NCBI GenBank assembly: GCA_964397665.1
Contig: CAYNJW010000004.1
Location: 6,660 to 35,110 of the forward strand
Source: Candidatus Woesearchaeota archaeon
Lineage (GTDB): Archaea > Nanobdellota > Nanobdellia > Pacearchaeales > GW2011-AR1
DNA: 28,451 nt
Direction of reading: 5' to 3'
The notes beneath the pieces were generated by a model that was not told where the DNA came from, did not search any database, and saw nothing but the letters and a program-made list of their open reading frames with translations. The translations under genes and the position numbers were made by a program. Below are positions 1,186 to 28,451 of the stretch, one piece after another. Each line of letters opens with the position of its first letter. Within the stretch, counting starts at the first letter, position 1.

Positions 1186-1244
1186 TTTTTCTCAAACAAA
1201 AAAGATACAAACAATTTATAAATACTGAAATTCTTAAAATATTA

Positions 1245-1249
1245 GGAGG
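1245..1249 (+). promoter_or_regulatory. Shine-Dalgarno-like GGAGG upstream of the oxidoreductase operon
   Basis: GGAGG lies 5 nt upstream of the ATG at 1255. A TTTATAAA box at 1215-1222 sits further upstream, so this is one of the few leadered genes in the window. Confidence 0.5.
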
Positions 1250-1254
1250 GATAA

Positions 1255-3602: not shown

Positions 3603-4447
3603 ATAAAAATAATTTAACATTAATTGGGGAAAAATTAAATTCTAAAACCCCAATGTTAATAATGCTTGCTCCAGCATTTCTAACAGATTTTAAATTTCCA
3701 GACATAATTCATCAATTAAAAAAATTAGGATTTGATAAAGTTACTGAAATAACCTTTGGAGCAAAAATAGTAAATAAAGAATACCATAAACTATTAAAAA
3801 AAACAAATAGATTAGTAATCTCTTCTCCATGTCCTGGAATAGTCCATACAATCTCTCACAACTTCCCCAAACTTAAAAAAAATTTAGCAAAAATTGACAG
3901 CCCTGTTGTTGCTATGTCAAAAATCTGTAAAAAAGAATATCCTAATCATGAAATAACTTTCCTATCTCCTTGTGAATTTAAAAAAATAGAAGCATCAAAA
4001 ACAAAAACAATTGACTGGGTAATCGATTTTGAACAACTTAAAAAACTTATCAAAGAAAAGAATATAAAAAAACCGAAATTTAAAAAGAAAAACCTAACAT
4101 TTGATAAATTCTACAATGATTATACAAAAATCTATCCACTTTCTGGAGGACTTTCTCAGACTGCACAAATCAACAGAATACTAAAAAAGAAGGAAATTAA
4201 AGTTATAGATGGCATTCTTAATGTAATGGAATTTATGAAAAATCCTGACCCAAAAATCAAATTTGTAGATTGTTTATTCTGTGATGGTGGTTGTATTGGT
4301 GGACCTCATACAACAAAAAAAATTTCAATTGATAAAAAAAGTAAAATTCTTAAACAATATCTTAAACAATCTAAAAGAAAAAGTATTCCAGAAAATAGAA
4401 AAGGATTACTAAAAAGAGCAAAAAATTTAAAATTTACAAAACAATAA
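3599..4447 (+). CDS. [FeFe]-hydrogenase H-domain-like protein (minimal, 282 aa, no accessory cluster domains)
   Basis: Aligns by eye to the clostridial HydA H-domain. MLAPAF...LGFDKVTEITFGA matches QMAPAV...LGFDKIFDINFGA. L1-like SSPCPG has Cys78 at 3830-3832, L2-like SPCEFKKIE has Cys125 at 3971-3973, and L3-like FCDGGCIGGPH has Cys228/Cys232 at 4280-4294. Confidence 0.75.
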   Translation: MNKNNLTLIGEKLNSKTPMLIMLAPAFLTDFKFPDIIHQLKKLGFDKVTEITFGAKIVNKEYHKLLKKTNRLVISSPCPGIVHTISHNFPKLKKNLAKIDSPVVAMSKICKKEYPNHEITFLSPCEFKKIEASKTKTIDWVIDFEQLKKLIKEKNIKKPKFKKKNLTFDKFYNDYTKIYPLSGGLSQTAQINRILKKKEIKVIDGILNVMEFMKNPDPKIKFVDCLFCDGGCIGGPHTTKKISIDKKSKILKQYLKQSKRKSIPENRKGLLKRAKNLKFTKQ

Positions 4448-5309
4448 TTAAAATTGCCCCAATTAACATAACTATTGTTGCTAAAATTCTAATAAATAAA
4501 TTCTTATCTTTGAAAATTCTCCCACCAATTATTATTGCGAAAAAAACAGACAGCCTCTTTATAGACAACACCAAAGCTACTGGAATTAATTTAACTGCTA
4601 AAATTTGTAAATAACGATAAGATAATGTAATAAAAGATAGAATGAATATGGCTCTCCAAGAATATTTAATAGTTTTTTTTATTTCAGAGTAATCTTTAGA
4701 AACTAAAACTATTACTAAAAAGATAATTGCTAAAAAAAGATGTTGAAATGCAAAAAAAGCATTTACTTGAATTTTAAATTTACTTAATAATGCTTTATCA
4801 AGAATTGAAGTAGTAGTAAATAAAAAAAGTGCGATAAAAATGTACTTATTTCCTTTTGAACTAAATAGTTTTTTTACGGGAGTTAAAAAATCCAGTTTTC
4901 CACCTAATTGCAAAACATACGTCCCTATTAGTAAAAATAAAATTCCAATAATTTCAAAAAAAGATAAAACATCTCCAAGAATAAGAAATGCAAAAACTGC
5001 AACTAATCCAGGAGTAAGAATCAACATTGGTAAAGCTTTGCTAATCTCTAAATCTTTAATTGCGAGCATAACACACACAAAAGAAATTGCACCTAAAAAA
5101 CTTTTAAAGAACAACACAAAAAGACTAATTAATGTTAATGAATGATAATCTATAAAAAAGAAAAAAGGGATTGAGATAATAAAATTAAAAAAACCTAAAA
5201 GAAAAGAAAAAGATAAAGCTTTATCCTTAAATAAAATCTTCTTCTCGAGAATTGCAGCAAAAGCAGAAAAAATTGCAGAACCAAAAGCAAATAAATATCC
5301 TTCTAACAT
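4434..5309 (-). CDS. EamA/DMT-family membrane transporter
   Basis: 291 aa with about 10 hydrophobic segments arranged as two EamA-like halves. Its start overlaps the tatD stop by 7 nt. Confidence 0.7.
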   Translation of the reverse strand: MLEGYLFAFGSAIFSAFAAILEKKILFKDKALSFSFLLGFFNFIISIPFFFFIDYHSLTLISLFVLFFKSFLGAISFVCVMLAIKDLEISKALPMLILTPGLVAVFAFLILGDVLSFFEIIGILFLLIGTYVLQLGGKLDFLTPVKKLFSSKGNKYIFIALFLFTTTSILDKALLSKFKIQVNAFFAFQHLFLAIIFLVIVLVSKDYSEIKKTIKYSWRAIFILSFITLSYRYLQILAVKLIPVALVLSIKRLSVFFAIIIGGRIFKDKNLFIRILATIVMLIGAILIIVL

Positions 5310-6100
5310 AAATCGAATAACTCCACAGAATTCTTATAAATTTGTTTAGCAACTTCTTTTTCAGTTAAATTCTTAATTTCTGCAATCCTCTTGACTGTAA
5401 TTGTAACATTTGCAGGTTCATTTCTAACTCCTGCTATTGGTGATAAATAAGGCGAATCTGTTTCTGTCAATAATTGTTCAAGAGGAACTAAATCTACCAA
5501 CATTTCAAAATGTTGTAATCGAGTAATCACTGGAGGAACAGAAAAATAAAAACCAGCTTCAACACCTTCTCTAATTAAAGATTTTTTCCCATTAAAACAA
5601 TGCATTATAACTTTCCTTAAATTATTTTCTTTTAAAATTTTAATAGCATCAGCCTCTGCTTTTCTAGAATGAATCACTATTGGTTTATTTATCTTTTTAG
5701 CAAGTTCTATACTTTTTAAAAAAACTGCTTTTTGTTCTTCTTTAAAATCTGGAGCAATCTGATAATCTAAACCAACTTCTCCAATTGCAACACAGTCTTT
5801 TGAATGTTCTTCTATCCATTTAATCTCTTTATCTACTGAAAAAGGTTTAATAACTCTTGAAACATCATCATCTAACTGTCCAACAAGTTCTATAATTGAA
5901 TCTATTGGGTACAACCCAAAACTAGCTTTTATTAAAGAATACTTCTTACTAAGTTCTAAAGTTTTTCTATTTGTTTCAGGATTGACCCCTGAATTGATTA
6001 TAAAACTTACACCTTTCTCTTTTGCCCTAGTTAAAACATCTTTCAAATCACCCTCAAAACGCGAACTTTCAACATGTGCATGAACATCTACAAACTCCAT
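5303..6100 (-). CDS. tatD: TatD-family metal-dependent hydrolase/DNase
   Basis: N-terminal DVHAHV motif, plus GEVGLDY, VIHSR and TDSPYL motifs typical of TatD. Confidence 0.85.
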   Translation of the reverse strand: MEFVDVHAHVESSRFEGDLKDVLTRAKEKGVSFIINSGVNPETNRKTLELSKKYSLIKASFGLYPIDSIIELVGQLDDDVSRVIKPFSVDKEIKWIEEHSKDCVAIGEVGLDYQIAPDFKEEQKAVFLKSIELAKKINKPIVIHSRKAEADAIKILKENNLRKVIMHCFNGKKSLIREGVEAGFYFSVPPVITRLQHFEMLVDLVPLEQLLTETDSPYLSPIAGVRNEPANVTITVKRIAEIKNLTEKEVAKQIYKNSVELFDLC

Positions 6101-6111
6101 ATATAAAAAAG

Positions 6112-6179
6112 AAAAGCATAGTTTTTATTATTTTGCTAATCACCTTTTAATCTCTTTTCCATTGAAAATCAAAGTTGAA
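6112..6179. repeat. Direct repeat copy 1 (68 bp, identical to 7108-7175); an orphan copy of the tsaC 3' end plus the functional tatD promoter
   Basis: Base-by-base comparison at an offset of 996 nt gives 68/68 identity. Identity is lost at 6111/7107 and at 6180/7176. Confidence 0.95.
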
Positions 6180-6362
6180 AAACACAAGCGGAATGTAATG
6201 ACTTCCAGAGTTTTTTGTAAAAAAAATTTGGGAAAATTCTGTAAGGATTTTCTGTTAACTATTGTTGCTTTACCCTAACGAAGTGAGAGTCTCCAATGCA
6301 TTGCAAAAAAATGAGGAGTTTGAATACTCTTTACCACTATTAAATGACTAAAAATAGAAAGA

Positions 6363-6370
6363 TTTATAAA
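6363..6370 (+). promoter_or_regulatory. TATA box (TTTATAAA) of the insert ORF, with GGAGG at 6396-6400
   Basis: The box lies 40 nt upstream of the ATG at 6410. GGAGG is 9 nt upstream of that ATG, implying a leadered mRNA, unlike most host genes. Confidence 0.45.
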
Positions 6371-6409
6371 TGGAATTTCTTTTCTACTTTTGCAAGGAGG
6401 ACAAATAGA

Positions 6410-6838
6410 ATGAACAAAACACAAATAACAAATGCAGATCTTGTAGAGAGATTTCCACAAATAAGGAATAAAACTACTGCTATGAAAGCTGTAATGGATG
6501 TTCTGAAAGAAAGTCTAGAACCTGCATATCAGGGATTAGAAGTAAGACCCTATTTTGAAAATAGGGATATTGGCATATTAATGCCTTTATATGCTCCTGA
6601 ATTGAAAGGTTACCATTTAATTCAGAAAACAAAACTAGACCAACCAGAAAGAACTATCAAAAAAAGTCTTTTCGGACTTATAAAAACACAAGTAACTAAA
6701 ACACATGACAAGAGAAATATCGCCTATGGAGGTATAGAATCTTCTGCTCTTGACGTTCTTGTATATGAAAGCGAAGTTTTACAAGCATGTGAAGAAATTG
6801 CTAGAAAAACACAAGGTGGTCTTAGGGTTAGATTATAA
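6410..6838 (+). CDS. hypothetical protein (142 aa), sole cargo ORF of the insert
   Basis: The ORF track begins at the ATG at 6344, but only the ATG at 6410 has GGAGG at proper spacing, and no TATA box sits 22 nt upstream of 6344. I recognise no motif in it. Confidence 0.6.
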   Translation: MNKTQITNADLVERFPQIRNKTTAMKAVMDVLKESLEPAYQGLEVRPYFENRDIGILMPLYAPELKGYHLIQKTKLDQPERTIKKSLFGLIKTQVTKTHDKRNIAYGGIESSALDVLVYESEVLQACEEIARKTQGGLRVRL

Positions 6839-6844
6839 ATCTAA

Positions 6845-6860
6845 TTTCTTTTTTATTTTT
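6845..6860 (+). terminator. oligo-T tract downstream of the insert ORF
   Basis: T6 at 6849-6854 and T5 at 6856-6860 lie right after the stop at 6836-6838. Archaeal termination typically uses oligo-T. Confidence 0.35.
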
Positions 6861-7107
6861 ATTATCTTTATTTAAAACTCACTAATCAATGAAAAATTTT
6901 GGTGAGCTTTGTGAACATTTTATCCTTCGTTAGACAAAGTGCAAAGCATTTTGTAAGTTTTCATTGATCTGATAAGTTGTAGATTAAAAGTCTTTACATT
7001 TTTCTTGACATTCGAAAATAAGTAGTTTTTCTATTTTTGTCTAAAACAAAAAGCTATTTGTCCGAAGGACGTATGCTTATCTCTCCTATCATTCGGGTTG
7101 GAAGAAA

Positions 7108-7175
7108 AAAAGCATAGTTTTTATTATTTTGCTAATCACCTTTTAATCTCTTTTCCATTGAAAATCAAAGTTGAA
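7108..7175. repeat. Direct repeat copy 2 (68 bp); contains the last 12 codons and stop of tsaC plus 28 bp downstream
   Basis: Identical to 6112-6179. On the minus strand it encodes ...STLIFNGKEIKR*, continuous with the tsaC ORF. Confidence 0.95.
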
Positions 7176-7645
7176 GGTCTTCCATTCAAAACACCACCAT
7201 CAATAATCTCATCTACCTGGCTTTTAATAAACTCATCAATTAAACTTGTTGAAACTGCAAATGATTCTCCAGAAAGATTAACTGATGTAGTAATAAATGG
7301 AACTTTAGCTAATTGAATACTCTTAAAAAAATCACAATTGGGAATTCTTACCCCCAAAGTATCACCCTTAGCAACATGATTTAAAAAATTTCTTTTCTTT
7401 TTCCTAAGAATTAAGGTATATTGTCCTGGAAGATACTTTGATAAATCAACATCGACAATAAGATTTTCTTCTATCCATTTTATCGAAGGTGCTATAACAC
7501 TTAATGGCTTATTTTTGTCTCTTCTTTTCAAATCTTTTAATTTTTGAACCGCTGGAACATCTAAAGCGTTACAACCAAGACCATAAATTGTATCTGTAGG
7601 GTAAATAAATAATTTTCCACTTAATATTTTTTTCACAACATCCAT
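7136..7645 (-). CDS. tsaC: L-threonylcarbamoyladenylate synthase (YrdC/TsaC/Sua5 domain)
   Basis: Contains YPTDTIYGLGCNA, KRRDKNKPLSVI, LGVRIP and TTSVNLSGE motifs. The track start at 7666 is GTG. The ATG at 7645 has a TATA-like box (7668-7674, minus strand) 23 nt upstream and does not overlap the divergent promoter. Confidence 0.85.
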   Translation of the reverse strand: MDVVKKILSGKLFIYPTDTIYGLGCNALDVPAVQKLKDLKRRDKNKPLSVIAPSIKWIEENLIVDVDLSKYLPGQYTLILRKKKRNFLNHVAKGDTLGVRIPNCDFFKSIQLAKVPFITTSVNLSGESFAVSTSLIDEFIKSQVDEIIDGGVLNGRPSTLIFNGKEIKR

Positions 7646-7678
7646 AAGACTTATAATCTTAAACACCTAATAAACTTT

Positions 7679-7900
7679 ATGCAAATTATATCTCTAATCT
7701 TGATTCTCTGTGCAATTCCTTTAGGAATTTTTGCAAAAAGTCTGACAAAAGATGAAAAAAAAATTTACTGTAAAAAACAATACTTTCCGACAATTATTTT
7801 AATAACTTCAATAAGCATTTTAATCTTCTATTTTATAAATATTATAATTGCTAAAACATTACTTTTTATTACACTTCTAATTTTATTTTGGAAAAAATAA
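7679..7900 (+). CDS. small membrane protein (73 aa, 2-3 TM segments)
   Basis: ATG ORF. TTATAAT at 7651-7657 ends 22 nt upstream. The protein is strongly hydrophobic. Confidence 0.5.
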   Translation: MQIISLILILCAIPLGIFAKSLTKDEKKIYCKKQYFPTIILITSISILIFYFINIIIAKTLLFITLLILFWKK

Positions 7901-23830: not shown

Positions 23831-24103
23831 CTATTTTTTCAAAAGAAATATTCAAAGATAACAATCCTTAAAAACAAAAAATCAATGATTATTCTCTTAC
23901 ATTGTCTGGGAAAAATGCATTAGAAGCTCTTAATTTATTAGAAAGAAAATGTTCTGGAGAAGATGTAAAAAGAACTGTTAGATGTCAAATTGGAAATTTT
24001 CCAAGCGATGCTGATGATGTAAGTGCTCCAAATTTGTTTTAAAATAACTGCTTTTACTAAAAAGCATAAATTTATTTATTTCTAAGTTTATAACGACGAG
24101 GCC

Positions 24104-24144
24104 TTTATAAATAGAAACCATTTATAAACCAATACCTTTATAAA
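24104..24144 (+). promoter_or_regulatory. Three tandem TTTATAAA TATA boxes upstream of tbp (24104-24111, 24121-24128, 24137-24144)
   Basis: Three exact octamers, each preceded by CC/CA, start 17 and 16 nt apart. The proximal box ends 22 nt before the ATG at 24166. A fourth, weaker box, TTTATAAC, lies at 24087-24094. Confidence 0.6.
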
Positions 24145-24165
24145 CAAAATTTAATTTTATGAATC

Positions 24166-26057: not shown

Positions 26058-26164
26058 TATTCTAAAATACTCAAAATATGAACTCTTAAAAATTAATTTA
26101 GTCAATATTATCAAAAAATAAAAAAGCCATAAATCCTTAAAAACCCTCCTTTCTAAAGAATATC

Positions 26165-28451
26165 ATGCCACACGTAAAAAAAATTATAATGCAGGGGTTT
26201 AAATCATTTGCTAGAAAAACTGAAATTCCGTTCGAAGAAGGTATGAATGTTATTGTTGGTCCAAATGGTTCTGGAAAATCAAATATCACAGATGCATTAT
26301 GTTTTGTTCTTGGAAGAGTTTCTATAAAATCGATTAGAGCTGCAAAAGCTGCAAATCTTATTTTCTCTGGAAATAAACAATTTAAAAGCTCTTTGGAAGC
26401 TTCAGTAGAATTAATCTTTGATAACTCAGATAAAACTTTTGCAATAGATAAAAATGAAATCTCAATAAAAAGAGTAGTAAGAAAGAGTGGACAATCAGTT
26501 TATAAGATAAATAATGAAACAAAAACTAGGCAAGAACTTTTAGAACTTCTTGCGCAAGGAGGAATAGATCCACATGGATTTAATATTGTTCTTCAAGGAG
26601 AAATAGCTTCACTTATAAAAATAAATGCTGATGAAAGAAGGAAAATAATTGAGGAAGTAGCTGGGATTTCAATTTATGAAACTAGAAAAATTAAATCTTT
26701 GAAAGAGCTTGAAAAAACTGAAGAAAAACTAAAAGAAGTTTCAACAATACTAAAAGAAAAAAATAGTTATCTTAAAAATCTAGAAAAGGAAAGACAAGAA
26801 GTTTTATCTTATCAAAAATTAGAAGAAACAATAAAAAAATGCGAAGGAACAATTTTAGATAATGAAATACGAACTAAGAAAAAGGAACTTAAAGAGAAAG
26901 AAGAAAAAGAAGAAAAAGAACTTAGAAAACTGAAAGAGATAAAGGAAAAAGTTGCAAATAAAAATGAGATAATCAACCAATTTGAAGAAAAGATTATTAA
27001 AATAAATAAAAAAATCCAAACATCTACTTCTCAAGAACAAGAAACAATAAACAAAGACTTATCTGAATTAAAAGCAAAATTAGCCGGTTTAAGTGTGAAA
27101 AAAGAAAATTTTGAAAGAAGATTAGAACAGAATAATGAAAAAGAAAAAAATATGAGAAATAAAATTGAAAGCTATACTGAAAAACTTTCACAAATGGAAA
27201 AATCTACTCCAGAAATAAAACAGCAACAACAAGAATTAAAAAAAATTCAAGATAAATTTGATAAATTAGAAAAAGAACGAAGAAAGTTTTATCAAATTAA
27301 ATCTGAAGTTTCGACATTAGAAAATCAAAAAGAAGAAAAAATGGAAAAACTAATTGAAGAAAAAACAGAATTAGAATTAATTGAAAAAACAATAACCCAG
27401 TTATTTAATGAAATTAAATATGAAAAATCTCCTGAGAAAGCAAAAAACTTAATTCTTGAAACAAAAAAAGAAATAAGAAAAACAATTGAAGAAATAGAAA
27501 CACTAACAGATAAAATCCTTGAACTTGAAAAAACAAATGCAATAGTTGAACAAACAATCTCTAGAGAAGAAAAACTTAAGGGAGACATTATAACTCTTAA
27601 AACATGCCCATTATGTAAAAATGAAATAACTAAAGAACATATTGAACAGGTAATAAATCGGGCAAATGAAATAATAATAAAAACAAAAGAAGGTAAAGAA
27701 AAAAATAACGAAATAAAAGAAAAAGCAAAAATAAGAATCAAAAAATTAAAAGAAATTCTTGAAAAACTCGAATTAAAAATCCGTGAAATTGAACTAGATA
27801 TAATAAAAATAGAAAAATCTGAAGAAAAAAAAGAACAAATAAAAAAATTAATGATTTCTAGAGATCACAATAAAACAATCATTGATGGACTAAATCTAAG
27901 ATATAAAGATATTAAAAAAGAATATGAAAGACTAAAAAATATTGAAGAAATTTATGATGAAACTAGAATTAGAATGCAAGAGTTATCCTTTTCAGATATT
28001 GATATGGATTCTGAAATATCTATGAAACAAATGGAACTTGAAAAGATAAAAATTGAAATAAAGGCAATTGAAAGAGATTCAGAAGATTCAAAAATAGAAT
28101 TAAAAAAAATTATTAAAGATCTTGAAGAAATTTTAATTAAATCAAAGAAAAAAGAAAAAGAACAAGAAGAAATTTATAAACAATTCCAAAAATTATTTGA
28201 AGAAAAAAATGAATTTCAAGATCAACAAAAAGGAATTGAAACAATGGTTATTGGTTTTCAACATGAGATGAAAAATCATGAAATAAATATTGGAAATCTA
28301 AATATCGAAAAAGCAAAATTAAATGCCCAATTAGAAACTTTATCAAATGAACTTGAGAAATATAAAGGAATTGAATTCATGAAAGGACCAATAATACAAA
28401 TTAAAGAAAAGTTAAATAAAGCTAAACTAAGATTTTCCTCTTTTGGGAATA
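26165..28451 (+). CDS. SMC-family ATPase, 5'-partial (runs off the window end); SMC-type head with a Rad50-like CxxC hook motif
   Basis: Not in the ORF track because it has no stop in the window. I translated it by hand: open from the ATG at 26165 for 762 codons. It contains GFKSF, Walker A GPNGSGKSNITDALCFVLG (26258-26281), IVLQGEI, ERRKIIEEVAGIS and a long K/E-rich coiled coil, with CPLC at codons 481-484 (27605-27616). CTTAAAAA (26136-26143) ends 22 nt upstream. Confidence 0.85.
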   Translation, partial: MPHVKKIIMQGFKSFARKTEIPFEEGMNVIVGPNGSGKSNITDALCFVLGRVSIKSIRAAKAANLIFSGNKQFKSSLEASVELIFDNSDKTFAIDKNEISIKRVVRKSGQSVYKINNETKTRQELLELLAQGGIDPHGFNIVLQGEIASLIKINADERRKIIEEVAGISIYETRKIKSLKELEKTEEKLKEVSTILKEKNSYLKNLEKERQEVLSYQKLEETIKKCEGTILDNEIRTKKKELKEKEEKEEKELRKLKEIKEKVANKNEIINQFEEKIIKINKKIQTSTSQEQETINKDLSELKAKLAGLSVKKENFERRLEQNNEKEKNMRNKIESYTEKLSQMEKSTPEIKQQQQELKKIQDKFDKLEKERRKFYQIKSEVSTLENQKEEKMEKLIEEKTELELIEKTITQLFNEIKYEKSPEKAKNLILETKKEIRKTIEEIETLTDKILELEKTNAIVEQTISREEKLKGDIITLKTCPLCKNEITKEHIEQVINRANEIIIKTKEGKEKNNEIKEKAKIRIKKLKEILEKLELKIREIELDIIKIEKSEEKKEQIKKLMISRDHNKTIIDGLNLRYKDIKKEYERLKNIEEIYDETRIRMQELSFSDIDMDSEISMKQMELEKIKIEIKAIERDSEDSKIELKKIIKDLEEILIKSKKKEKEQEEIYKQFQKLFEEKNEFQDQQKGIETMVIGFQHEMKNHEINIGNLNIEKAKLNAQLETLSNELEKYKGIEFMKGPIIQIKEKLNKAKLRFSSFGN

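Follow-up and report, generated by a model that had tools for sequence, protein, structure and literature searches.

Introduction

The att repeats quoted for crenarchaeal integrated elements are 29–69 bp long, and archaeal elements are known to integrate into protein-coding genes at their 3'-distal parts (PMC6563490). The elements catalogued in Thaumarchaeota and Crenarchaeota are complex and multigene, and site-specific integration needs an integrase (PMC6563490). The locus described here lies in a 28.4-kb stretch of archaeal DNA, referred to throughout as the window, and it resembles these archaeal att-flanked elements (SSV-type, tyrosine-integrase and cryptic) in having perfect repeats, one of which restores the 3' end of the target gene. 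It differs from them in that the insert is only 0.93 kb and holds one small gene and no recombinase, in that the cargo is a chromosomal lineage gene rather than a viral or plasmid one, and in that close relatives yielded no empty-site allele.

Other kinds of integrated DNA carry no recombinase of their own. IMEX-type and satellite elements depend on a recombinase of the host or of a helper, such as Xer, and are flanked by duplicated recombination sites. Both the lack of a recombinase and the duplicated flanks are seen here, but the repeat is a gene tail plus a promoter rather than a dif-like site (palindromes of ≤5 bp, judged by eye), and there is no sign of multiple integrations or of a helper. 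Insertion sequences and MITEs make short target duplications, typically of 2–14 bp, and have terminal inverted repeats; small size and flanking direct repeats are shared with the present locus, but its duplication is 68 bp long and terminal inverted repeats are missing. Insertion of an integron cassette would not make a 68-bp duplication, and the window was found to hold no IntI. When a circle and the chromosome recombine by a single crossover within a common segment, the insert is left between two identical direct copies of that segment, with no enzyme of the element being needed. The product of such Campbell-type integration is the arrangement seen here, where the insert lies between two direct copies of a segment that is single in the uninterrupted locus of a relative (L013). 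Homology-facilitated illegitimate recombination (HFIR), described in bacteria, inserts short linear DNA that is homologous at just one of its ends (PMC3240628).

Results

Alignment of positions 6112–6179 with positions 7108–7175 showed two direct repeats that are identical at 68/68 positions with an offset of 996, just as the earlier note on this DNA had claimed. Exact identity ends at both repeat margins, and the longer alignment covers 74 nt at 97%. The repeat is perfect and far above chance expectation: the maximum exact repeat in 30 first-order Markov simulations was 22 nt, and the next-longest exact direct repeat in the window is 19 nt. The repeats and the genes around them are as follows.

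6112–6179, no strand assigned: direct repeat copy 1, an orphan copy of the tsaC tail with the final 12 codons, the stop codon and 28 nt 3'
7108–7175, no strand assigned: direct repeat copy 2, the functional tsaC 3' end plus 28 nt 3'
7136–7666, minus strand: tsaC, Sua5/YciO/YrdC family, TsaC-like (Pfam E 4e-34)
5303–6100, minus strand: tatD, TatD-family hydrolase (Pfam E 1.8e-69), leaderless
4434–5309, minus strand: eamA, EamA (Pfam)

The pair is of the att type in that one copy overlaps the 3' end of a target gene (68/68). Within copy 2, 37 nt are coding (STLIFNGKEIKR); the stop codon (7136–7138) and 28 nt of downstream sequence make up the rest, and it is because of this copy that the C-terminus of tsaC is intact; the gene callers start tsaC at the ATG at 7645, which gives a protein of 169 aa. 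Directly after copy 2, in the direction of tsaC, lies a T7 tract (7101–7107, minus strand) that is likely the tsaC terminator. Copy 1 lies upstream of tatD, with 11 nt between its end and the tatD ATG (6100), and it includes an A/T-rich, TATA-like stretch (6122–6134, read on the minus strand). This is the sole TATA-like element upstream of the leaderless tatD, and the tatD promoter thus appears, as judged from sequence, to be located in copy 1. The assignment of copy 2 as the true tsaC end and of copy 1 as an orphan duplicate with a TATA-like box beside tatD, made in the earlier note, is borne out by these features. Removal of one repeat and of the 928 bp between the repeats yields tsaC, 39 nt and tatD in succession, the compact arrangement that had been predicted. 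Since copy 2 keeps the tail, stop and terminator region of tsaC and copy 1 seems to keep the promoter of tatD, both housekeeping genes would have survived an insertion into the 39-nt spacer.

The same structure, with both repeats identical, is present in a second contig (L001; ENA ERZ27262693 k141_751296) that is 99.92% identical to the window, with 13 SNPs over 16.8 kb. The assembly k-mer of this contig, 141, is longer than the 68-bp repeat and spans the repeat plus both flanks. A Logan contig assembled at k=31 from SRR8439058 (L002; 988 bp) corresponds to window positions 6150–7137, i.e., 30 + 928 + 30 nt; it stops 30 nt inside each repeat, as a de Bruijn graph would make it do at a real 68-bp repeat. 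Given the structure in the second assembly and the break of the k=31 contig inside both repeats, the repeat-bounded insert is not an assembly artefact.

The content of the inserted segment is as follows.

6180–7107, plus strand: inserted segment between the repeats (928 bp), GC 30.8%, with one gene, ORF142
6410–6838 (ATG 6410), plus strand: ORF142, encoding a 142-aa protein of a rare DPANN-archaeal family of ~130–155 aa
6363–6400, plus strand: ORF142 expression signals, TATA box TTTATAAAT (6363–6371) and Shine-Dalgarno-like AGGAGG (6395–6400)
6305–6935, plus strand: core module of promoter, ORF, T-rich terminator and downstream hairpin region, ~77% DNA identity with a homologous locus (L004)

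One 142-aa ORF (6410–6838) and a non-coding tail of 269 bp (6839–7107) make up the insert much as had been described, and the observation that it carries no integrase also stands: ORF142 is its only gene, neither a tyrosine nor a serine recombinase is encoded in it, and searches of Pfam, PHROGs, NCBIfam, PADLOC and PDB with the ORF142 sequence were all without a match. No viral or plasmid relatives were found in IMG/VR, INPHARED phages or PLSDB. The insert had been said to differ in composition, and this claim proved weak. Its GC content is slightly raised, at 30.8% relative to 27.4 ± 2.1% across 928-bp windows (95th percentile), and ORF142 has the highest GC content of the 23 genes (33.1%); the non-coding flanks of the insert, with 30.4% and 27.5%, rank at the upper end of the spacers in the window (9–28%). 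The GC3 of ORF142, however, is 17.5%, inside the host range of 15.7 ± 2.3%, so that the difference is marginal. With no database matches and a host-like GC3, the insert shows neither viral- or plasmid-type cargo nor a foreign composition.

Further candidates for functional or relic sequences in the insert were rejected. ARAGORN detected no tRNA, Rfam gave only chance-level matches at the gathering threshold and at E≤5, and RNA folding z-scores were –0.45 to –2.1; an RNA element was rejected. Terminal inverted repeats are absent, the left end aligning with the reverse-complemented right end at the shuffle mean. An inverted repeat of 9 bp, CTAACGAAG, occurs at 6275 and 6925, on either side of the conserved module and nowhere else in the window, but as a pair of element ends it is attributed to chance, since an equally GC-rich 9-bp inverted pair occurs in 20% of shuffled inserts. 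No Pfam remnants were found in the non-coding flanks in any frame, nor did the flanks have similarity to proteins of the relatives, and pseudogene remnants were rejected on these grounds.

ORF142 has a GGAGG leader, in a genome where most genes look leaderless; this point of the earlier note holds, as a Shine-Dalgarno-like leader is absent in 21/23 genes of the window, and the combination of TTTATAAAT, a spacer and AGGAGG is shared by ORF142 with the host POR gene (1255) and by these two only in the window. The AAGGAG motif is retained at two homologous loci (L004 and L003). Homology to L004 spans ~6305–6935, i.e., ~630 bp of the 928 bp, and the promoter, leader and terminator of ORF142 are intact and conserved with that locus. 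Of the outer segments of the insert, the left one (~125 bp) is without detectable homology to L004 and the right one (~170 bp) has marginal homology to L004 only; neither has a source match among the available sequences. The protein family is a small archaeal one of 16 representative clusters, rare and fast-evolving; dN/dS values between ORF142 and its homologues are 0.40–0.63. An AlphaFold model built from 18 sequences (pLDDT 92.9) predicts helices flanking long β-hairpins. Foldseek returned no neighbour of this model at E≤1e-3 or TM>0.31; the weak, non-significant matches were to MC1-domain and HU-like DNA-binding proteins, all at TM ≤ 0.31, and a Gad1, MC1 or HU-like identity was set aside on these values (E>1e-3, TM ≤ 0.31).

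To place the insert in its genomic context, we compared the locus with those of relatives. In the closest relative found (L013; TatD 74% and TsaC 64% identical), tsaC and tatD are contiguous with a 4-nt overlap (ATGA) and a single copy of the tsaC tail, which supplies the uninterrupted junction that the earlier note had proposed to look for. Because the two genes overlap by 4 nt there, the insertion appears to have been into an ancestral tsaC/tatD junction. L013 is a distant relative (74% protein identity), and its 4-nt overlap differs from the 39-nt spacer that would have been present before the insertion. The block POR-TPP-FeHyd-EamA-TatD...Dph5-IleRS is collinear with that in relatives (L014/L015), and the region downstream of tsaC is variable among relatives.

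Homologues of ORF142 are found in this same block. In a Nanoarchaeia MAG (L018), a member of the family lies between ACS and POR, which are 70.6% and 61.6% identical to the orthologues of the present genome. A second homologue (P0003, 59% identical) is the direct neighbour of an AMP-binding gene, at 2.4 kb from POR; its 12.4-kb contig (JGI 3300075153) also has tsaC, without an ORF142 gene beside it. Both positions fall inside the syntenic block shared with the window. A third homologue (L003/L011/L012) has an arginase gene on one side and an MFS gene on the other, and no flanking direct repeats are present at the homologous locus L003. A second context for the homologue P0002 (L005) was discarded, as its flanks were recognized by eye in the alignment as Illumina adapter and hold no context information. 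ORF142 is therefore no orphan, contrary to what had been stated, its family having 16 representative clusters with two members in the same syntenic block. The earlier note had added that its reading would fall if the ORF proved to be a conserved gene of the lineage; this was nearly the outcome, in that two members of its rare DPANN family lie in the same syntenic block.

Signs of mobility were sought in the window, in the second contig and in sequence collections. Of the search proposed earlier for trans-acting recombinases and for further copies of the insert, the part that covered the 28.4-kb window and L001 was negative: no recombinase was found among the Pfam-annotated genes of the window or in L001, and neither the repeat nor the flanks of the insert have further copies in these two. 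Third, degenerate copies, as older integrations at tsaC would leave, were likewise absent from both in a repeat search, and no other long direct repeats were found to flank the three hypothetical genes that separate ACS from POR. The exact 45-nt core of the repeat had 0 matches to JGI metagenome contigs. Sequence searches for an empty site or a circle junction of the same species, corresponding to the excised 996-bp circle envisaged before, turned up neither, and contigs among the homologues had no terminal overlaps as circular contigs of ~0.9 kb would. The signature of an att-like integrative element is thus upheld as far as the insertion and its long, target-site-like duplication at the tsaC 3' end are concerned; recombinase, element ends, extra copies, empty site and circle were not found in the sequences covered. 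Nothing indicates present mobility of the insert, though the two 68-bp repeats could still permit a rare loop-out deletion.

Discussion

The insert looks like a fixed single-gene insertion in the chromosome of a Woese-/Pacearchaeota-like DPANN archaeon of the GTDB class Nanoarchaeia, a one-off recombination scar. We consider it somewhat probable that a gene module of the host lineage was relocated once, with a 68-bp target duplication, and that no foreign mobile element arrived. Since ORF142 homologues stand beside ACS/POR of the same syntenic block in relatives, the event is best read as relocation or re-acquisition. The unit moved would comprise the TATA box, the Shine-Dalgarno leader, ORF142, the T-rich terminator and ~0.3 kb of flanking DNA; its source would be lineage DNA from the AMP-binding/ACS-POR site, where relatives have the gene a few kilobases away in the same block, and its landing site exactly the tsaC/tatD junction. 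Most simply, a circle of ~996 bp carrying one 68-bp copy would have given the two identical direct repeats by a single, Campbell-type crossover, for which either host homologous recombination or a trans-acting recombinase would have been the catalyst. The same product might have been reached by a join that was homologous at one end and illegitimate at the other, or by a replication template switch. To our knowledge, neither Campbell-type integration nor HFIR has been demonstrated in DPANN archaea. We infer the circular intermediate, the single crossover and the direction of relocation; no donor site, circle or empty allele was seen, and the mechanism is read from the end product.

Several observations touch on this reading from both sides. 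The host-like GC3 of ORF142 and the leader architecture in common with the host POR gene favour relocation. On the other side, the context of the ORF142 family has changed more than once (the arginase/MFS site), as a mobile module also would; GC content is slightly above the local norm both in the insert as a whole and in its non-coding flanks; and the outer segments of the insert match nothing available.

A non-autonomous, site-specific mini-element would be a ~1-kb circle with the tsaC 3' end as a 68-bp attP, served by a recombinase encoded elsewhere (genome, virus or plasmid), with ORF142 as cargo or as a DNA-bending or directionality factor. Perfect repeats that duplicate a gene 3' end are the classical att signature, and 68 bp falls within the 29–69 bp crenarchaeal range, at its upper end; the occurrence of the ORF142 family in at least three gene contexts, the slightly raised GC, the predicted long β-hairpin arms and the weak, non-significant Foldseek matches to MC1-domain and HU-like proteins would also suit such an element. 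We nevertheless regard it as unlikely, as no recombinase was found in the window or L001, no second copy, terminal inverted repeat, circular contig or empty site turned up, and the homologous loci are without flanking repeats. Only ~630 of the 928 bp are common to L004 and the leftmost ~125 bp lie outside the homology, so that neither conserved element ends nor an attP can be recognized. Moreover, the placement of two homologues in the conserved ACS/POR neighbourhood is that of ordinary chromosomal genes, and the structural matches are all at TM ≤ 0.31.

The insert might instead be what decay has left of a larger element (provirus, plasmid or cryptic). Such an element would have had its own integrase and the tsaC 3' end as its attB, and later internal deletions would have spared ORF142, some non-coding DNA, attL and attR. 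The att-like repeats fit this, as does the variability downstream of tsaC among relatives, and the non-coding DNA of the insert (~500 bp), which for a compact genome is slightly GC-rich and of unusual length, could be degraded coding sequence. This reading is equally doubtful, because the flanks hold no integrase or other Pfam remnant in any frame and no similarity to proteins of relatives, viral or plasmid homologues were not found, and the promoter, leader and terminator of ORF142 are intact and conserved with L004, in a family that is chromosomal in the same block. The repeats are also still perfect, though the interior would need extensive decay.

A more specific proposal, and a very unlikely one, is a minimal integrase-less DPANN element. 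Its excisable form would be a ~1-kb circle with a 68-bp attP in imitation of the tsaC 3' end and the tatD promoter, a recombinase of the host or of a helper would move it, and ORF142 would be its DNA-bending or directionality factor. If excision or mobilisation proved true, this would be the smallest integrase-less integrative element in archaea. Hardly credible is an artefact in which a separate ~1-kb molecule or a repeat collapse was threaded into the chromosome via the shared 68 bp. Assembly at k=31 does leave the repeat unresolved, with a contig break at that place, but the identical structure is present in two long contigs that come from different assemblies and are 13 SNPs apart, and one of these was assembled at k=141, which spans the repeat and the flanks on both sides.

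If relocation of a lineage gene is the true explanation, the locus offers no new kind of system, but a natural example of an ultra-compact DPANN genome gaining a gene between tightly packed essential genes, and it helps to understand gene-order change and promoter architecture in unculturable archaea. The ORF142 family, tied to the acetyl-CoA-synthetase/POR neighbourhood and with a confidently predicted fold that has no structural neighbour, may merit separate study.

Structure of the insert at the tsaC-tatD junction

The earlier note had described a perfect 68-bp duplication of the 3' end of tsaC, with one copy closing that gene and the other just upstream of tatD, around an insert with one 142-aa ORF and a 269-bp non-coding tail. 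All of this was borne out, and Pfam confirmed tsaC, tatD and eamA. The two copies agree at 68 of 68 nt with an offset of 996 nt; exactness ends sharply on both sides, and the match reaches 74 nt if two mismatches are tolerated. Because the window's next-longest exact direct repeat measures 19 nt and the longest repeat in 30 Markov-1 simulations of the window was at most 22 nt, a chance origin of the 68-nt repeat is excluded. The 928-bp insert consists of the ORF (hereafter ORF142) with non-coding DNA upstream (230 bp) and downstream (269 bp).

Features of the junction and of the AGGAGG leaders in the window
1186-1254: POR leader with AGGAGG and the TTTATAAAT box
4434-5309, minus strand: EamA (Pfam)
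5303-6100, minus strand: TatD (Pfam)
6112-6179: copy 1, same sequence as copy 2, 11 nt upstream of the tatD ATG
6363-6409: ORF142 leader with AGGAGG and the TTTATAAAT box
6410-6838: ORF142
7108-7175: copy 2, read on the minus strand (T-TCA...AGG-TGA); last 12 tsaC codons (STLIFNGKEIKR), stop and 28 nt downstream
7136-7666, minus strand: TsaC, Sua5/YciO/YrdC protein (Pfam)

With the duplication so placed, tsaC is left with an intact C-terminus, stop and T-tract, and the only TATA-like element upstream of leaderless tatD stays in place. Copy 2 also duplicates the putative leaderless promoter of tatD, which would be directed into the insert tail (7040-7107, minus strand), where a micro-ORF of 12 codons (MIGEISIRPSDK) starts at an ATG at 7092 and a GUCCUUCGGAC hairpin and a T-tract come after it; the duplication may have created an orphan transcript of ~50 nt there. 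In copy 1, 32 more codons free of stops, reaching into the insert, share the reading frame of the orphan tsaC tail (6112-6310, minus strand). This extended frame, GKATIV...RLCF running into STLIFNGKEIKR and the stop, lacks an ATG and so is probably not expressed.

The same locus is present in a second assembly (ENA ERZ27262693:k141_751296), with 13 substitutions relative to the window over 16.8 kb, an identical insert and both repeats perfect. In a k=31 graph the integrated form is indistinguishable from an empty site plus a circle, whereas contigs built at k=141, which covers the entire 68-bp repeat and both flanks, can discriminate, and these have the integrated form. A Logan contig (k=31, SRR8439058; 988 bp, window 6150-7137) comprises the insert and, on either end, precisely k-1 = 30 nt of repeat, the graph break expected of a true 68-bp repeat. 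By these two independent lines of evidence the locus is real DNA, and the assembly artefact against which the earlier note had advised a check is very improbable.

The window is low-GC (27%) housekeeping DNA of a DPANN archaeon, encoding TBP, DNA ligase, RNase HII, IleRS, ArgRS, a Dph5-like methylase and three tRNAs; its closest relatives in databases carry the labels Woesearchaeota, Pacearchaeota or Nanoarchaeia. The deviation in the insert's composition, proposed earlier, is marginal: its GC is slightly high (30.8% versus 27.4 ± 2.1%), with one non-coding flank at the upper end of the intergenic range and the other beyond it, but the GC3 of ORF142 is host-like (17.5%). In 21 of 23 window genes the ATG has a TATA-like box ~25-33 nt ahead of it and no Shine-Dalgarno motif, so these genes are read as leaderless. 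Only ORF142 and the host POR gene differ: in both, TTTATAAAT is followed by ~25-30 nt, AGGAGG and ATG; the leader and the mostly leaderless host genes had been seen correctly, but the feature is common to a core host gene. Separately, a 16-nt unit with TTTATAAAC in it is tandemly repeated about three times at 24102-24149, which places repeated TATA-box-like motifs before the TBP gene (24166). The apparent absence of listed ORFs at 26141-28451 (plus strand) reflects a purine-rich frame that stays open for at least 770 codons, continues past the window end and carries a Walker-A motif, GPNGSGKSN (SMC/Rad50-like).

Gene order at the junction in relatives

An uninterrupted tsaC-tatD junction was found in the relative with the nearest TatD homologue (P0021, 74%, on contig L013). 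Its TsaC (169 aa, 64% identical, C-terminus ...GKEVKR) ends in a TGA that overlaps the tatD ATG (ATGA), and a radical-SAM gene comes next. This contiguity indicates that the adjacency is ancestral in the group and that the window bears an insertion; no empty-site allele was found in a search for one in the same species. In two further loci, L014 and L015 (TatD 68%), the block is collinear with the window, POR-TPP-(AcT)-FeHyd-(173 aa)-EamA-(rSAM)-TatD-[X]-Dph5-(deaminase)-IleRS, where X is ORF142, TsaC and a 73-aa gene in the window.

The tatD-dph5 interval
Window, 6101-7900: ORF142, TsaC and the 73-aa gene
L014, 3959-4949: two C39-peptidase genes
L015, 1841-2831: two C39-peptidase genes

In two other relatives a 312-318-aa gene follows tsaC instead. 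These differing neighbours indicate that the tsaC-adjacent segment is rearrangement-prone, and gene order points to the tatD-dph5 spot as a site of recurrent gene turnover.

The ORF142 family

In a word-indexed search, 5.8 billion proteins yielded only three homologues of ORF142 (59-64% identity), and 1.84 billion representatives, searched exhaustively with an HMM, gave a family of 16 proteins, almost all 110-160 aa long, with no Pfam, NCBIfam, PHROG, PADLOC or PDB-sequence match. The family is thus real but rare. The AlphaFold model (18-sequence alignment) is confident (pLDDT 92.9) and has long beta-hairpins framed by N-terminal and C-terminal helices, and Foldseek against PDB and BFVD gave nothing significant (best TM 0.31). 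Values of dN/dS of 0.40-0.63 against two homologues indicate a protein that is constrained yet fast-evolving.

In a Nanoarchaeia MAG (GCA_028718805.1), the homologue P0015 (L018, 6001-6417) sits between acetyl-CoA synthetase (ACS) and POR genes 70.6% and 61.6% identical to those of the window's genome. P0003 (59%, JGI contig 3300075153) directly adjoins an AMP-binding gene situated 2.4 kb from POR-TPP, and tsaC lies 8.5 kb away on that contig with no adjoining ORF142. In the window's genome ACS, POR-TPP, EamA, TatD and TsaC fall within ~11 kb; the ACS-POR interval holds three unannotated genes, and ORF142 is at tsaC/tatD. A third context lies between arginase and MFS genes (L003/L011/L012). 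From these contexts, ORF142 appears to be a lineage gene of the syntenic block that has moved position. Viral or plasmid cargo was rejected, given the chromosomal contexts and the lack of relatives in the IMG/VR, phage and plasmid sets. One apparently different context, that of an ORF142 homologue on a public contig (ENA ERZ1742238 NODE_168699), was discarded as a library artefact, its flanks (1-67 and 647-776) being what we take to be Illumina P7/P5 adapter sequences.

Origin of the insertion

DNA homology of the insert to L004, the locus of homologue P0002, is ~77% and spans ~6305-6935, comprising promoter, leader, ORF, T-rich terminator and downstream hairpin region. The left outer 125 bp has no homology (z = -0.65 versus L004), and homology over the right outer ~170 bp, where L004 stops, is marginal (z = 1.6); neither segment otherwise matched the window, the second assembly, relatives' DNA or proteins, or Pfam. 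Terminal inverted repeats were sought in the insert and none was found, a unique 9-bp inverted pair (6275/6925) was not significant, and no direct repeats flank the L003 homologue locus.

Direct-repeat-flanked insertion at a gene 3' end is an already known kind of event. Crenarchaeal att sites are quoted at 29-69 bp, and 14/68 thaumarchaeal elements lie in 3' parts of protein-coding genes (PMC6563490). The att-flanked integrative element proposed earlier stands as to its att-like direct repeats and 3'-distal gene target, which the insert shares with archaeal integrated elements; unlike them, it encodes no integrase and carries no mobile-element cargo. It is also not an IS element or MITE.

At a junction contiguous in a relative, 928 bp were gained together with a 68-bp duplication. 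The insert works like a Campbell-type insertion, and the simplest route would be a single crossover, homologous or site-specific, that joins a ~996-bp circle with one 68-bp copy to the chromosome. The same product would result from a replication template switch, or from homologous joining at one end combined with illegitimate joining 68 bp upstream, as in the HFIR concept (PMC3240628); staggered cuts of the transposase type are unlikely at 68 bp. We somewhat favour a one-off relocation scar, since neither a recombinase nor a further copy of the insert turned up in the window or the second assembly, no conserved element ends were found, and the cargo has a chromosomal pedigree. On the same evidence, a mini-element mobilised in trans is unlikely, as is, to a like degree, a larger integrated element of which the insert is the remnant; a minimal integrase-less excisable element is a shade less likely again. 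For ORF142 itself, the family members beside AMP-binding/ACS genes and near POR in two relatives hint at a functional link to the ACS/POR metabolic cluster.
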